Origin: a virus
IMG/VR virus record: IMGVR_UViG_3300021295_000040
Coordinates: 1 to 36,237 of that record
Reading direction: 5' to 3' (one strand)
DNA: 36,237 nt
The position numbers and the translations under genes were made by a program. Positions 21,920-33,201 of the stretch are shown piece by piece (the first letter of the stretch is position 1; the number at the start of each line of letters is the position of its first letter). The notes under the pieces were generated by a model. That model was given only the letters and a program-made list of their open reading frames with translations. It made no database searches and was not told the DNA's origin.

Positions 21920-22091
21920 ACACTCACCTCATTATTTTTATCTCATAAATCAAAGCTATTGAAAAAATTATAATATTTGTTAAAATGAATATTTTTGTTA
22001 TATTTAAAATCATAATTTATCCCCAAATTCATCACAGAATAATTTCTGAATTTAATTTTAGTTTTTACTTGTAAATATTGCTTATTTTTAT

Positions 22092-22150
22092 GAACATATT
22101 TATATATGATGTTTAATAGATTATATATACAGAGAACGGTGATTATTATG
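22092..22150 (+). promoter_or_regulatory. Promoter/leader/RBS cassette, copy on plus strand
   Basis: GAACATATTTATATATGATGT...CAGAGAACGGTGATTATTATG; 51/59 identical to the minus-strand copy at 23553-23611; contains TTTATATA box and GGTGA RBS. Confidence 0.8.
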
Positions 22151-22327
22151 AAAAACGTTGATTCTAAAATTGTAAAAATAACTGGTGACGATAATAGTGG
22201 ATTTTTAATGTATGTTAACGGACACTTAATGTGGATTTGTGAAACCCGTCAGGACGTTTATGATCAAATTGAATTTTCAAAAGAAATGGAATATTTTGAT
22301 GAAAATACAGTGATTCCAGAATTTTAA
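22148..22327 (+). CDS. Hypothetical protein (start MKNVDS at 22148; track ORF begins 22106)
   Basis: ATG preceded by GGTGATT RBS within the promoter cassette. Confidence 0.7.
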   Translation: MKNVDSKIVKITGDDNSGFLMYVNGHLMWICETRQDVYDQIEFSKEMEYFDENTVIPEF

Positions 22328-23294: not shown

Positions 23295-23555
23295 TTAATT
23301 GAAATAGATGTTTGATTCCCATCTTCTTGAGCGTAAATATTCCATACTTTCAACTTGAAGACTTTCCTTTTCATCTTCACTCATAACACAGGATTTTTTA
23401 GTGACTTCCTGATCGATATCTTCACAAATTTCCTCAGCACTTTTTTCACATTCACGGATGTAAATGGTCCAAGCTTCAAAAAGTTGTCCTTCTTCTAAAA
23501 AGCTATTACAAGTTTCGTTTTCTTCTGCAAATCTTTTAAGTTTACCGTAAGCCAT
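23295..23555 (-). CDS. Hypothetical protein (start MAYGK at 23555)
   Basis: ATG is the last codon of the promoter/RBS cassette. Confidence 0.7.
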   Translation of the reverse strand: MAYGKLKRFAEENETCNSFLEEGQLFEAWTIYIRECEKSAEEICEDIDQEVTKKSCVMSEDEKESLQVESMEYLRSRRWESNIYFN

Positions 23556-23611
23556 AATAATCACCTTTCTCTGTTTATATTATCTATTTCACATCACATA
23601 TAAAGGTGTTC
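23553..23611 (-). promoter_or_regulatory. Promoter/leader/RBS cassette, minus-strand copy
   Basis: GAACACCTTTATATGTGATGTGAAATAGATAATATAAACAGAGAAAGGTGATTATTATG. Confidence 0.8.
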
Positions 23612-23653
23612 ATGATTTATAGACGTTATTAGTCTTTAATTTAAAAATAGAGA

Positions 23654-23932
23654 TTATTGGTTTTTCCAATAATCCAAATCCTCTTTAATTATTGCTTTGC
23701 AGCCTTCAACAGAACCAATTCTCTCATCACACTCAGCACCTAAATACACACATACTGCCTCAAGGTTCTTGTGACTCTTCCAGGATAGTGATCTTTTTAA
23801 CAGTTTCACCATTGCTTTTTTATTTTCTTTTGGATATAGTGGTTCAGCTTCACCATATCTGTATCCAAATTCAGCCAAATGCAAATCATCAAAGAATTTT
23901 TCCATTGTTTTACTCATTGCCATTATAATCAC
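23654..23932 (-). CDS. Hypothetical protein (true start probably 23923 or 23917)
   Basis: AGGTGATT RBS precedes ATG GCA ATG AGT. Confidence 0.65.
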   Translation of the reverse strand: MIIMAMSKTMEKFFDDLHLAEFGYRYGEAEPLYPKENKKAMVKLLKRSLSWKSHKNLEAVCVYLGAECDERIGSVEGCKAIIKEDLDYWKNQ

Positions 23933-24495: not shown

Positions 24496-24544
24496 CACCT
24501 GTGTCTACTTATTATTCTCTTCCACATCATATATAAAGGTGTTC
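24496..24544 (-). promoter_or_regulatory. Promoter/leader/RBS cassette, third copy
   Basis: Core GAACACCTTTATATATGATGTG, 21/22 identical to 23590-23611, followed by AGGTGATT RBS. Confidence 0.8.
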
Positions 24545-24618
24545 CTAATTTAAAGACTTAAAAACTCTTTAAATAAAAAATTGAGAGTAAGTAATTTAAA
24601 AAAATAAAAAATAATCAC

Positions 24619-25308
24619 TTACAAATCTTCTTTTCTATAAATGATGCTGGATTCATCACTTCTGCACCAGGAAACAGCACGGTAAGTAACAGGTTGAAGT
24701 ACTGTTTCAATTAAAACTTTCATCACATATTGAGTTAAAATGAAACCTAAAAGCATTACTGGAGGCATGGTTCCAACAAAAGCAATTCCAATAAATAAAA
24801 TTGTATCCACCAATTCTCCACCAACAGTTGAGCCAATGGTACGTAAAAACAGATGCTCACCATTTGTGTAATTTCCAATTACGGTCATCAATCTTGCATT
24901 TACAAACTGACCTACAATGTAACCGCAAAGACTTGCAAAGGTGATTCTTGGAACAAAACCAAACACATAGGCCAAGTGTGGTTGAGCTGTAAAAGTGGTC
25001 GGATCAAATGGCATCATAATACATAAAAGTCCACAAATAACCATCATAACCTTCATACACATTCCTAACAGTGCTGTTTTAATCATGGTCTTTTCACCAA
25101 ACACTTCAGTAATTACATCAGCCACTAAATAACAAACAGGGAACAATATACAACCACATTCGATGGAGAAAAATCCCCAACTACAAACTTTAGTTGCAAG
25201 TAAGTCACTTAAAACTCCAGCAACAGCGAATATAGTAATCAACACAATTTTTTTCTGTGTAAAATTCAATTTCAAATCATTTCTAATATTATAATCATAT
25301 TTTACCAT
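24619..25308 (-). CDS. yhhQ: Queuosine-precursor (preQ0/preQ1) transporter, VUT/YhhQ family
   Basis: Multi-TM 229 aa with GCILFPVCYLVADVITEVFG, PRITFASL..Y.VGQF, RT.GST..GE..DT.LF..IAF.G family motifs. Confidence 0.88.
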   Translation of the reverse strand: MVKYDYNIRNDLKLNFTQKKIVLITIFAVAGVLSDLLATKVCSWGFFSIECGCILFPVCYLVADVITEVFGEKTMIKTALLGMCMKVMMVICGLLCIMMPFDPTTFTAQPHLAYVFGFVPRITFASLCGYIVGQFVNARLMTVIGNYTNGEHLFLRTIGSTVGGELVDTILFIGIAFVGTMPPVMLLGFILTQYVMKVLIETVLQPVTYRAVSWCRSDESSIIYRKEDL

Positions 25309-26050
25309 TTTTTAACCTCTTATTTTTCTCATTCCAATATTTTTCATAATATCTTTGCTTTTTTCTCCAATCAAGTAAACTCAAAACAAGCTTTTCACAA
25401 TAAGTCAAGCTATTTCTGTCAATGTGTTTGCTTTTGTATCTTCCATTAACAGCACTAAACAACCAACTGGCACTATCAACACTATCAAAGGGAACATTAT
25501 TCAAAATGAATTTCCTGGTACCTCCAAGACCATGAATTTTACAATCATAATCATGTGCAATATTTGCAAACTTAATCAAATCATGATCAGGTATACCCTC
25601 AATGGGAAGACAAGATATTGAAACATAATCATAATTGCTGCACATCCTTTTGAACTTTTTAAACCCACGATTCTTGTGCCAAACCGGAATAACTTTATCT
25701 GTTACCTCTTCAATGATTTTTCTCAACTTCAAAACATTCTTAAAACCAATACGGTTGTCAATATCCATTTCAAAATACCCAACAACATTTGAAGTGTCGG
25801 TTTGTTTTATAAAGTTTGAGTAGTTCACAGTAAACTCAGTAAAATCAATATCCTTAGCTGTATGAAATGTATGAGCTCCACTATCTATCAAAATTCTTTC
25901 AGATTTGGATTTGAAAAATAGATAATCCTCATACATCTTCTTTTGCTGAATATAAAAATAGCTGAAAAGATGGTTTATCGGCCTTATATTGGTCTCTTGA
26001 ACATAATTGTGCAAACACTGATGTTCTGAGGCTGCTAAAAAAATGTTCAT
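25295..26050 (-). CDS. dpdA: TGT-fold base-exchange enzyme, viral DpdA-like (start MNIFLA at 26050, ATGA overlap)
   Basis: TGT-like motifs LIDSGAHTF, FEMDID, IPVWH, KIHGLG, FDSVDSASW; adjacent to yhhQ. Confidence 0.75.
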   Translation of the reverse strand: MNIFLAASEHQCLHNYVQETNIRPINHLFSYFYIQQKKMYEDYLFFKSKSERILIDSGAHTFHTAKDIDFTEFTVNYSNFIKQTDTSNVVGYFEMDIDNRIGFKNVLKLRKIIEEVTDKVIPVWHKNRGFKKFKRMCSNYDYVSISCLPIEGIPDHDLIKFANIAHDYDCKIHGLGGTRKFILNNVPFDSVDSASWLFSAVNGRYKSKHIDRNSLTYCEKLVLSLLDWRKKQRYYEKYWNEKNKRLKNGKI

Positions 26051-26712
26051 GAATCTGACATCCTGCAAGTATAACCTTCTTCTACTAATTTATCAAATGC
26101 CTCAGTCATTTCATCTTCACTGTCAAATAATAATGTAATCTCATAAAAACCAATACTGGAATCATCATCGTCATCAAAATCATCATCAAAGGTTTCTCTA
26201 TCAGAAGATTCACTGCTAACGGCTTGTTTTTGAGGGTCTGTAAATTCCATCTTGTCAAGTAAACCTTTGATTTCAATTTCCTCATCAAAACCATCAAAAC
26301 CAGTTAATTCCAAATCAAAATTATTAACTTCCAATTCTTCCAAAACGGAGAATAATTTTTCAGTATCCCATTCACCGCCAATCTTGTTTAAAGTCAAGTT
26401 CAGCGCTTTTTCATGGTCATCAGACTCAACAGTTAATTCGGTATCGGTAAATACCCAACCAATATCACCAAGTCTGATTAAATTCAGCTCATCAAAGATT
26501 TTATTATCTTCAAGATGCTGATCTATTAAAACCTCAAACCTTTGGTGACCTCCAATGATATGGTTGTTTTTAAGGTTGATTACAATAGGGTCCACCAAAC
26601 CAAAAGTCTCTAAGCTATTTCTTAATTTGGTGGACTCGTTTTCAGGCATTATTCTTGGATTATAATCACTAGGGATTAAATCAGTTATTTTTATCTTTTC
26701 TACTTCTATCAT
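26047..26712 (-). CDS. ParB/Srx N-terminal domain protein with acidic linker
   Basis: IKITDLIPSDYNPRIM...LRNSLETFGLVDPIVIN...IIGGHQRFEVL, and LNLTLNKIGGEWD. Confidence 0.85.
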   Translation of the reverse strand: MIEVEKIKITDLIPSDYNPRIMPENESTKLRNSLETFGLVDPIVINLKNNHIIGGHQRFEVLIDQHLEDNKIFDELNLIRLGDIGWVFTDTELTVESDDHEKALNLTLNKIGGEWDTEKLFSVLEELEVNNFDLELTGFDGFDEEIEIKGLLDKMEFTDPQKQAVSSESSDRETFDDDFDDDDDSSIGFYEITLLFDSEDEMTEAFDKLVEEGYTCRMSDS

Positions 26713-26738
26713 TTTTGGCGACTCCGTTTAAATTTTTA

Positions 26739-26787
26739 TTATGTATTTAAATTGCAACAATCATTTGAATTGCAATTATTTTTTCTA
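26739..26787 (-). pseudogene. Decayed duplicate of the radical SAM gene 3' end
   Basis: 26746-26778 is 30/33 identical to 27388-27420; encodes KNNCNSNDCCNLNT* versus KNINYNPNDCCNLNN*. Confidence 0.75.
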
Positions 26788-26859
26788 TAAACCAGTTATA
26801 GTAAAATTAACGTCATTATAAAGTAAAAATTCTTTAAAATTTAATTATATGATTTTTTA

Positions 26860-27354
26860 TCAATTTACATATTTTTCAACAACACATATAGTATCGTGAT
26901 GGCTCCCACCATGACCTACAACAAGTATACATTCTTGCTTGAAACCTCTTTTTTTACCCATTACAATACTATGATAACCGTAAGTAATGATTCGTCCATT
27001 TTTATTCAAAATAAAAGATAATTCATTTTTTATTTTGTTAAATGTAGAACAAATTCTGCCATTATATTTTTCCATAGATTTTCTTAAGCTATAAGGCGGG
27101 TCAAGAATTATTGTGTCGAATTTTACACCTTTTTCTTTACAACACAAAACAAAATCAAATGCTTCCATACAATAATCCGGATTAAATTCATCAGATAAAT
27201 CAACACGAATTTCATTACAATTCAATCTTGTTTTTCCAGCAAATAAATTCAATACTTTGCCTTTACAATACTTTTCAGTCCATTTTTTTAATTTTGGCTG
27301 TTCAAAAGTATATTTTTTAGGCGGTTGCACCATATAATCCATTTTCAATTTCAA
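26860..27354 (-). CDS. Small SAM-dependent amino (N6-adenine-type) DNA methyltransferase
   Basis: Motif I VLNLFAGKT and catalytic motif IV IILDPPY; no obvious target-recognition domain. Confidence 0.8.
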   Translation of the reverse strand: MKLKMDYMVQPPKKYTFEQPKLKKWTEKYCKGKVLNLFAGKTRLNCNEIRVDLSDEFNPDYCMEAFDFVLCCKEKGVKFDTIILDPPYSLRKSMEKYNGRICSTFNKIKNELSFILNKNGRIITYGYHSIVMGKKRGFKQECILVVGHGGSHHDTICVVEKYVN

Positions 27355-27380
27355 ATCTTAACCTCCTTAAAAAATAAATA

Positions 27381-28223
27381 TTAATTGTTTAAATTACAAC
27401 AATCATTTGGATTGTAATTAATGTTCTTTGTAAAATAATCATAATGAGTTTGTACATCATCACAAACAGTTAACTGCTTAAAATCTAATTTAGACAATAC
27501 TTCAAGTTTTTTCTCTAACGGCAAATGACGATAACCTCCAGCTTTAAGAGAATATTGATTAAAATCAATAAAATCGTTTAAATCTTCTTCCAAACTTGGT
27601 TTTGTTCTTAAAAACTCAACAAGACACTTATCAACACCAATATTGTTTATAACATCAAAATCAGCTGTGTCAAATAAAAATGGAGATAATCTCAAAGCTA
27701 CATCAAAACCAAGATTATATAAAATTTCAATTGCATTTCTTCTTCTCTCAAAGCATGGTGCGTTATCTGTTGCAGCCAAAACTTCATTGTCATTTGTTGG
27801 AATTGAAATTTGAATATGTGCTAAATCTTTATCCAAAATATTAATATATTCATCTTCAACAATCAAATCCGATTTTGTAACAATTAGATAATGAATACCT
27901 TTTTCATTAAGTTTTCTAATTGCATTATAAGTATTTCTGTATTTTAACTCAATTGGCTGGAAACAGTCTGTTAGACCACCTAATCTTATAACACTTCCAG
28001 CTGGAATTTTATCGATTGTCCTGTAAACCTGGAGAAGTGGTGCAACCCCAACATCAGCAGGGTTCCAAAGTTTTCTAAAGTCTAAAATTTGTTTTGCATA
28101 GCAATAATTGCAGTTAAAAAAACAGCCCTTACCGTATAAATCAAGTCTTGTTGGATAAAAGCATCTATCACCTTCCGATCCTCCAACGGTTTTATAAAAA
28201 GAATTGTACTTATTCATTTTCAA
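27381..28223 (-). CDS. Radical SAM protein, SplB/photolyase-like family
   Basis: CX3CX2C motif GCFFNCNYCYAK, plus LTDCFQPIE and LIVTKS motifs. Confidence 0.85.
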   Translation of the reverse strand: MKMNKYNSFYKTVGGSEGDRCFYPTRLDLYGKGCFFNCNYCYAKQILDFRKLWNPADVGVAPLLQVYRTIDKIPAGSVIRLGGLTDCFQPIELKYRNTYNAIRKLNEKGIHYLIVTKSDLIVEDEYINILDKDLAHIQISIPTNDNEVLAATDNAPCFERRRNAIEILYNLGFDVALRLSPFLFDTADFDVINNIGVDKCLVEFLRTKPSLEEDLNDFIDFNQYSLKAGGYRHLPLEKKLEVLSKLDFKQLTVCDDVQTHYDYFTKNINYNPNDCCNLNN

Positions 28224-32130: not shown

Positions 32131-32238
32131 GTTGGGTTTATTATGGAGTATGAGTAAAAAAAGCAATATAACGAGCTATAACTCCATATACCCAACTTAA
32201 CCATCACCAAATTTATCAGCCTAAATAATTTCAGGCTG
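32131..32238 (-). ncRNA. Putative structured small RNA A (5' short hairpin, linker, long interrupted hairpin with U7 loop)
   Basis: Stems CAGCCT/AGGCTG, GTTGGGT/ACCCAAC and ATGGAGT/ACTCCAT; begins 24 nt after a TTATATA box; repeated at 32572-32674. Confidence 0.6.
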
Positions 32239-32262
32239 TAATAAATAGTCTTAATTTTGAAG

Positions 32263-32289
32263 TATATAAGCAAAGTGAGAGAGCATTTG
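32263..32289 (-). promoter_or_regulatory. CAAATGCTCTC-N9-TTATATA promoter unit A
   Basis: Same motif and spacing at 32699-32725 and 32868-32894. Confidence 0.65.
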
Positions 32290-32329
32290 AAAACTATTCG
32301 TCATGAAAATTTACATAATTTTTTAAACA

Positions 32330-32557
32330 ATGAAAAATAAAATATTGAAAGAACTCAATAATTTGGAGATTTGTAATATGACTAGAGCAGAAGCAGAATT
32401 ACACGCCATTAGAACCACCATTGAAGCTTATCAAATGATTTTAAAAAATAATAATGAATTGTCTGAAAATGATAAAAACAATATTAGGAAAAAGATAACA
32501 GAGTTGGGAGAGCTTAGGGACAAAATATTGTCTGAAATATACAATCACGGCCTTTAA
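32330..32557 (+). CDS. Hypothetical helical protein (75 aa) between the two sRNA repeats
   Basis: ORF track. Confidence 0.6.
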   Translation: MKNKILKELNNLEICNMTRAEAELHAIRTTIEAYQMILKNNNELSENDKNNIRKKITELGELRDKILSEIYNHGL

Positions 32558-32571
32558 ATATTTAAAACATT

Positions 32572-32674
32572 GTCGGGTTTATGGAGCATGAGTAAAAAAA
32601 AGCAGTTTGACGAGTTTTAACTCCACAACCCAACTTAACCATTACCATACATCAGCCCAAATAATTTCAGGCTG
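32572..32674 (-). ncRNA. Putative structured small RNA B (diverged copy of A)
   Basis: Four stem substitutions relative to copy A are C-A or A-C mismatches on the plus strand but G-U wobbles on the minus strand. Confidence 0.6.
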
Positions 32675-32698
32675 CAATTAAAAATCTTATTTTTGAAG

Positions 32699-32725
32699 TA
32701 TATAAGCAAAGTGAGAGAGCATTTG
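32699..32725 (-). promoter_or_regulatory. CAAATGCTCTC-N9-TTATATA promoter unit B
   Basis: Identical to unit A over these 27 nt. Confidence 0.65.
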
Positions 32726-32755
32726 GTAAGTAATTTTTATATTGAAAAATAGTTA

Positions 32756-32843
32756 GAAGTCACATTTCCAGGATTTCAACCATCACTAAATCCAACAATT
32801 TTACACTTTTTTAACAAAAAAAGCATCTGAAATATGTGACTTC
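32756..32843 (-). ncRNA. Putative structured small RNA C
   Basis: Terminal stem GAAGTCACAT/ATGTGACTTC, inner stem GGATTT/AAATCC; contains TGCTTTTTTT and GTGATGGTT; begins 24 nt after a TTATATT box. Confidence 0.5.
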
Positions 32844-32867
32844 AATTTGTATATTAAACTAATAAAA

Positions 32868-32894
32868 AATATAACACTTGTGCGAGAGCATTTG
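32868..32894 (-). promoter_or_regulatory. CAAATGCTCTC-N9-TTATATT promoter unit C
   Basis: Conserved 11-mer and TATA-like box with the same 9-nt spacing. Confidence 0.6.
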
Positions 32895-32979
32895 GAAAGT
32901 ATTCAGTGAAAATTTAAGACGCTAATTATAACTTTTATGGCCGATAAAATATCATATAATACAAAAAAGGAGATATGAT

Positions 32980-33201
32980 ATGAAAATATTTAATAGTTTT
33001 AATAATAGACAATATCAGTTATCTGTTTGCTGTAAAAGCAAACACAGAAGTTTGAAAAGTAGAAAAGTTAATGATTTATTTGTTGGTAAAATAGCTTATA
33101 ATCCGATGCTATTTAGAAATACCAGCCATTACCCTATTGAAAACCGGCAGAAGATCAGAATGCAGATTAAGCTATTGGATAAAATTATTAATAGGAATTG
33201 A
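32980..33201 (+). CDS. Hypothetical basic protein (73 aa)
   Basis: AGGAG RBS upstream; no family recognised. Confidence 0.45.
   Translation: MKIFNSFNNRQYQLSVCCKSKHRSLKSRKVNDLFVGKIAYNPMLFRNTSHYPIENRQKIRMQIKLLDKIINRN

Follow-up and report, generated by a model that had tools for sequence, protein, structure and literature searches.

Three short units on the minus strand of a tailed Methanobrevibacter virus appear, on comparison with their homologues, to belong to an undescribed group of provirus-borne small RNA genes, made up of real families that fall within no named one. Their promoters share a box with DNA-repair genes of the host, and the RNAs share a pair of motifs with a differently folded core host RNA; this link between box-driven viral RNAs and a core host RNA is new. 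As far as sequence can tell, DNA damage probably leads the virus to express mimics of a host regulator. We found no description of either the box or the RNAs in the literature.

A gene-poor stretch of a Methanobrevibacter virus

The window (the whole stretch of DNA analysed, 36 kb of IMG/VR record IMGVR_UViG_3300021295_000040) encodes terminase, portal, sheath, tape-measure and endolysin proteins, contains an adhesin-like gene, and ends on the right in a type I restriction subunit. The region to the left of this subunit is poor in genes and contains units A, B and C. Units C and B recur at 92% identity in a Methanobrevibacter thaueri MAG, which identifies the host genus as Methanobrevibacter; the virus is a tailed virus of these methane-making archaea of the gut. 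No DNA match to the window was found among GenBank phages, and the proteins neighbouring the units had no relatives in viral contigs.

None of the small ORFs near the units has a convincing Pfam, PHROG or PADLOC family. A plus-strand ORF of 59 aa (32378..32557; 75 aa if read from 32330) is convergent with RNA B, has no Pfam family and adjoins B-type RNA in other genomes too, and an ORF of 105 aa on the strand of unit A starts ~40 nt past that unit. The 73-aa ORF at 32980-33201, which is conserved in G001, resembles on visual inspection part of a type I specificity subunit; one pairwise test against the neighbouring HsdS-like protein gave no match. Elsewhere in the window, small ORFs are surrounded by two repeats, one inverted (80 nt) and one direct (74 nt) (22090-22169, 23534-23656 and 24513-24589), probably a repeated promoter cassette, while consecutive queuine tRNA-ribosyltransferase-like, ParB-like and radical SAM genes (25295-28223) suggest a DNA-modification module. 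Scans of the window for bacterial promoters and terminators stayed at chance level.

Three units with one promoter geometry

A preliminary description of this DNA reported three minus-strand promoter copies, each at a fixed distance from a hairpin, and this pattern holds. The arrangement CAAATGCTCTC-N9-TTATAT occurs on the minus strand at 32264-32289, 32700-32725 and 32869-32894 and nowhere else in the window, against a mean of 0.02 in 100 shuffles, even with two mismatches allowed. Exactly 24 nt separate the 7-nt TATA element from the first paired base (32238, 32674 and 32843) in all three units. The promoter motif is present as described, but the conserved box is 20 nt long and begins 9 nt further upstream than had been claimed.

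All of the following features lie on the minus strand. In unit C, the box (32884..32903) is followed 9 nt later by the TATA element (32868..32874) and then by an RNA of ~88 nt (32756..32843) with a closing stem, an inner hairpin holding a U-run (32816-32825) and a mostly unpaired motif (32778-32786). Unit B has its box at 32715..32734, a 7-nt TATA element at 32699..32705 and an RNA of ~103 nt (32572..32674), in which hairpin 1 and an unpaired motif (32637-32645) are followed by hairpin 2, with a U-run in its loop (32594-32604). The box (32279..32298) and 7-nt TATA element (32263..32269) of unit A precede an RNA of ~108 nt (32131..32238), a diverged copy of B with an unpaired motif at 32199-32207 and a U-run at 32156-32165. 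At these positions the motif reads GU(G/A)AUGGUU and the U-run element UGCU7-8 in each unit.

A and B are, as proposed, diverged copies of one fold (89% identity over 82 nt), and the four stem changes between them are G-U or U-G pairs on the minus strand. Unit C does carry the two motifs in the reverse of the A/B order, but its U-run is paired inside a stem and not exposed in a loop. The minus-strand folds have z-scores of -3.1, -2.6 and -3.7 in the three units. Box orientation and one-sided G-C to G-U changes fix the minus strand, the latter as had been argued; the z-scores do not, being similar on both strands.

Families of structured RNAs in proviruses

Homologues of A/B were found in 13 of 103 genomes of the genus and homologues of C in 9, both counts being lower bounds because most of these genomes are incomplete MAGs. 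Every copy that we read sits in a provirus or an island, next to an integrase, a terminase gene or a restriction system. In one locus (L075 12060-13569) a reverse-transcriptase gene is inserted between an A/B-type RNA and terminase genes.

In the homologues, whose covariation had been suggested earlier as a check, pairing is kept, with compensatory changes both in hairpin 1 of A/B and in C. Hairpin 1 varies in sequence, is 98% paired and has three compensatory pairs; none of 500 shuffles matches its score, a count that should not be read as a probability, since the seven sequences are related. In C, both the closing stem and the inner hairpin persist, with three pairs changed on both sides and several G-C/G-U switches. 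Over 13 units, G-U pairs number 57 on the given strand and 7 on the opposite one. A third fold, a long hairpin with the same box and a similar closing stem, is present in further proviruses. In all folds the first stem begins ~51 nt after the start of the box core, which is where transcription should begin. C units and the third fold often directly adjoin tyrosine-integrase genes, and for many C units the next gene is a 170-aa ORF on the same strand; the window B, G014 and G069 units face a convergent gene.

Models of the different folds recognise neither one another nor the host RNA. Rfam 15 gave no match to the window (best local scores 13-20 bits, E 1 or worse) and none to the host siblings. 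Pattern scans of metagenome and viral sequences returned mostly chance matches, and four new units were kept after filtering. The idea of a family of structured minus-strand small RNAs linked to viruses or mobile elements, with their own promoter and no Rfam name, is thereby borne out. Three features of trans-acting base-pairing sRNAs, namely an own promoter, a conserved fold and a conserved unpaired seed, appear in the predicted units. Part of the window (share 0.04-0.85) is contained in 15 RNA-labelled runs from animal gut or faeces, as contigs only and with promoter DNA included in the best holders, for which reason these runs are no evidence of expression.

Three other identities were tried and rejected. 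The reading frame of a small peptide or type I toxin has 26-28 codons in window A and B, but it is shifted in G001, ends after its third codon in G014 and lacks a start in the A2 variants. For a tRNA-sensing (T-box-like) RNA, the best duplex over the host tRNAs found was -9 kcal/mol, not beyond chance. The units are separate promoter-driven genes and not the tandem pseudoknot repeats of a type III antitoxin or its mimic, and no toxin family was recognised among the small ORFs nearby. A check for RNA anti-CRISPRs gave a best local score of 9-11 against a single Methanobrevibacter repeat, no sign of similarity.

A motif pair shared with a core host RNA

The motif G(G/A)U(G/A)A(U)GG is present in all 13 units. 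The preliminary description had stressed the U-run, and a run of at least six U is indeed kept in 12 of the 13; the unpaired UGGURAUGGUU, an element that the host RNA has as well, is better conserved. UGC ahead of the U-run, ACUCAU and CUGA are not conserved across the 13 units, and the conserved core is UGGURAUGGUU plus the U-run, not UGCU7ACUCAU. The motif has an unpaired probability of 0.66-0.97 in eight of nine scored A/B and C units and of 0.8 in the host RNA, and is less clearly unpaired in the third fold. The two motifs lie within 30 nt of each other 46 times, against 7 in the control, and in reverse order 20 times against 2. At least five unrelated scaffolds carry both motifs in either order, even at one orthologous locus, so the opposite order first noticed in C is a property of the wider group. 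When a short, unpaired motif is conserved across so many scaffolds, it serves either as a seed for pairing or as a site for binding.

The host RNA with both motifs, itself folded differently, is present in 87 of the 103 genomes, likewise a lower bound, mostly at >90% identity (G009 1217424-1217536, L401; also L350, L426 and L435). It is a single-copy gene with two hairpins and a plain TATA promoter without the box, and in the four loci read it is followed by a conserved gene pair on the same strand. Like the viral RNAs, it has an unpaired UGGUGAUGGUU beside a U-rich loop and the same G-U strand bias; unlike them, it has other stems, a model without cross-match, no box, a single copy and high conservation. 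It hides an 11-12-codon frame without synonymous change. At the level of sequence, it was not found outside Methanobrevibacter among the genomes searched. At DUF308-like membrane-protein genes (L375, L379, L383, L387, L397, L422 and L351), further structured elements run convergent with the 3' end of the gene and have the motif and the U-run in either order.

The box is an element of the host DNA-repair regulon

The promoter had been taken for virus-specific, but its box belongs to the host DNA-repair regulon. The exact box core has 11 copies in one host MAG against none in the control, and 15 and 18 against none in two further host genomes. It precedes genes that we take to encode RPA, MCM, Hef, Hel308, UvrD, UvrA, Hjc, topoisomerase VI B, DUF763 and a DinG-like helicase (part of these names have Pfam support and the remainder were recognised from N-termini), as well as integrases and TnpB-like genes. 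A weight matrix adds Mre11-, NurA- and ribonucleotide-reductase-like genes and finds no box at radA. In host genes the box stands ~9 nt ahead of the TATA element, and its orientation relative to the gene is the same in host repair genes as in the RNA units; this agreement between host-gene and RNA direction counters the objection that the promoters fire only on the plus strand.

Boxes A, B and C match the published Sulfolobus consensus, which comes from another phylum, at 16, 14 and 16 of 20 positions. The DNA-damage-responsive element of Sulfolobus, bound by Orc1-2, is likewise 20 nt long and lies just upstream of the core promoter of repair-related genes (PMC6061795); the Methanobrevibacter box differs in belonging to another phylum and in driving viral non-coding RNA genes, with a binding protein and induction that are putative here. 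From the set of boxed genes and the match to the Sulfolobus consensus, we infer that the box is damage-inducible in Methanobrevibacter. Against the induction part of the pairing model set out below stand the lack of a box at radA and the M. smithii provirus MSTV1, which mitomycin C did not induce (PMC11375127).

The box occurs in other settings too. A perfect copy drives the gene of a small membrane protein, which is convergent with one for Orc1/Cdc6 (G009 276361-276600), and a similar boxed gene is found in G005 (L110). At L249 4086-4126, L298 235-294 and L326 3509-3550, the box lies between the TATA element of an RNA and the start, 13-32 nt off, of a divergent integrase-like gene, so that a single site might both switch on the RNA and repress the integrase. 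In other viral contigs (L009 2492-2660, L005 488-620 and L001 4641-4666) it stands before non-coding hairpins without the standard motif.

A pairing model and its alternatives

The reading that we prefer, tentatively and at somewhat less than even confidence, is that the units are damage-induced siblings of the host RNA, trans-acting RNAs of ~90-110 nt that would pair with ACCAUYACC sites. Upon DNA damage, a host activator, probably of the Orc1/Cdc6 family as in Sulfolobus, would bind the 20-nt box, and transcription would begin 24 nt beyond the TATA element, alongside host repair genes and provirus integrases; we regard this step as a whole as likely. Comparison of the sequences shows that the RNAs fold as scaffolds that leave UGGURAUGGUU unpaired and carry the U-run, the motifs common to the host RNA. 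The unpaired motif may act as a seed for C-rich ACCAUYACC sites in mRNAs, and the U-run may be a loading site for an Sm-type protein, U-rich single strands being plausible SmAP sites (PMC5587771). The virus would thus supply a damage-triggered dose of a host-type regulator as proviruses are induced.

We looked for such sites host-wide in the first 2.02 of 2.27 Mb (89%) of one genome, G009, with our own simple ORF calls. ACCATYACC occurs 5 times in its coding sequence against 12.5 expected, a depletion of the motif complement that is not extreme among 7-mers, and CCATCAC follows the stop codons of convergent genes 7 times against 0.26. The best start-region match in the host genome (-17.4 kcal/mol) is a pre-terminase gene, located ahead of the large terminase subunit of another provirus family; with the seed reversed, or shuffled in four ways, nothing at -14 appears in host start regions. 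A/B-type RNAs lie 0.7-2 kb upstream of such a pre-terminase-type start in four genomes; the ACT-variant start sites are known by position only. No start region in the window pairs well with RNA A, B or C, so that a target would be in the host or on another element.

No more than 7 of the 15 homologues compared carry the pre-terminase site. Among these starts (L556-L570, L074, L075, L407, L456 and L524), a strong hairpin over the ribosome-binding site is found in 5 of 15 and the motif complement in 7 of 15, never both, and the C-rich spacer is also explained by such a self-hairpin. Most carriers of the site have no such RNA nearby, and its 17-mer starts genes in unrelated bacterial phages too. 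Co-variation of a provirus's own RNA with its pre-terminase start was rejected. A candidate site in the box-regulated DinG/XPD-like helicase occurs in two of four homologues, 223 nt inside the gene; this site and one in the viral endolysin gene are suggestive only. Some host 3' ends are candidate sites as well. The motif varies among the RNAs (UAGUGAUGG, GGUAAUGG, GGUGAGG), and one target accordingly does not fit all. Integrase mRNA as a common target was rejected, and no rRNA target was found beyond a 6-bp anti-SD match.

ACCATYACC also stands 9-43 nt past the stops of convergent host genes, without a preceding U-tract (L343, L344, L346, L354, L363, L369, L370, L411 and L416), and is kept there in orthologues in two cases; these are either target sites, a 3'-end signal or decayed RNA genes. 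A box-regulated SocA/Panacea-domain gene (L501 8268-8330) has a leader with two motif complements in G009 and none in its G005 homologue.

Instead of pairing with mRNAs, the RNAs might be damage-induced sponges for a protein or RNA that binds the host RNA via the two motifs, in the manner of CsrB or pseudo-ToxI, a credible alternative that we nevertheless hold to be unlikely. It would accommodate the recurrence of the same two motifs, in free order, on five or more unrelated scaffolds, even within a single orthologous locus, and fold models that recognise neither one another nor the host RNA. The presence of three copies in tandem points to dosage. The motif is similar to the host ribosome-binding site (GGUGAU) and the U-run to the host terminator (GGTGAT and CTTTTTTT rank first among host words ahead of starts and past stops), and no single convincing mRNA target was found. 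The binding partner is putative, however, coding sequence shows no depletion of the sense motif (98 against 88.5 expected), and each RNA has one motif, unlike CsrB. It is very improbable that ribosomes are what is decoyed, with exposed GGUGAU pairing with the 16S rRNA 3' tail and occupying small subunits: the tail ends in GAUCACCUCCU and GGTGAT is the commonest host ribosome-binding word, but the pairing reaches 6 bp at most, leaves the conserved GGUU extension unexplained and is broken by the GGUAAU and AGUGAU variants. The function first suggested, an A/B loop antisense to an ATG AGT AAA AAA start or a GUGAUG K-turn with L7Ae, now has next to no probability. Its complement formally exists in window A and B, and some integrase genes contain AAAAAAAGCA near their start (a match found in 4 of 10 genes that reflects Lys-Lys-Ser codons), but the non-conservation of ACUCAU and CUGA largely refutes it: among 13 units ACUCAU is found only in window A and B, and no gene start matches it, whether in the window or among 1764 host ORFs (2.02 Mb of host genome), and CUGA is confined to the same two. 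A C/D box guide or K-turn RNA was likewise rejected, as full box C (RUGAUGA) occurs in 1 of 13 units and CUGA in 2, never together.

The units could also act in cis, as leaders or attenuators whose fold and internal U-run govern read-through from the damage promoter to the next gene. Same-strand neighbours do exist (the 105-aa ORF past A, the 170-aa ORF after many C units and the gene pair after the host RNA), and C sequesters its U-run in a stem; yet the downstream genes are unrelated between units, several units (window B, G014 and G069) face a convergent gene, and no conserved alternative fold was found; we consider a cis role improbable. We find it quite improbable that the units are not RNA genes at all and are folded-DNA or recombination sites beside integrases, or remnants of duplicated promoters. 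The frequent tyrosine-integrase neighbours of C and the third fold, the like z-scores on both strands and a start of C that resembles a second box would suit such a reading, whereas every scaffold starts to fold where transcription is expected to begin, the G-U pairs favour one strand, and no integrase lies beside the window units or A/B units.

Going beyond the damage-induced, trans-pairing siblings that we prefer, Methanobrevibacter may have an undescribed regulatory RNA circuit based on one motif pair (UGGURAUGGUU and the U-run) with the core host RNA. Proviruses would repeatedly have built folds around this pair and wired them to the host damage element, silencing or timing packaging and lysis genes of co-resident proviruses or disarming the host circuit at induction; we consider this larger scheme rather unlikely. 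Should our preferred reading be right, a damage element of the Sulfolobus type, a core RNA of the host and the biology of proviruses would come together in the principal methane producers of the animal gut. To our knowledge, next to nothing has been learned about small RNAs in methanogen viruses, or about the means by which their proviruses, lacking a LexA/RecA switch, perceive damage. In the best-studied methanogen provirus the inducing signal is unknown (PMC11375127). The units offer a direct test, with one promoter element, three short RNAs with predicted starts, a mutable motif and a host RNA for comparison.

Comparison with known systems

By analogy, the units seem to act like phage regulatory or mimic RNAs while standing outside any named family. 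SSV1, a temperate virus of archaea, offers a parallel in its short transcripts T-ind and T3E, which form part of a UV-inducible programme (bioRxiv 10.64898/2026.06.17.732947); T-ind is under control of the viral F55 protein, T3E is cis-antisense and not induced, and no homology to the units is expected. Lambda OOP, PreS and VpdS of VP882 (PMC12197685) resemble the units as short virus-encoded RNAs tied to exit from lysogeny, and VpdS competes with host sRNAs for Hfq (PMC12197685). The units differ from all three in their archaeal host, in having no sequence relation to them, in not being cis-antisense to a neighbour and in building several folds around one motif common to a host RNA. Pseudo-ToxI of phage PhiTE (PMC3475682) is comparable in that tandem virus-borne RNAs imitate a host RNA; unlike pseudo-ToxI, the units form no repeat array of one unit and no toxin partner was found, each has its own promoter, and their folds differ from that of the host RNA.
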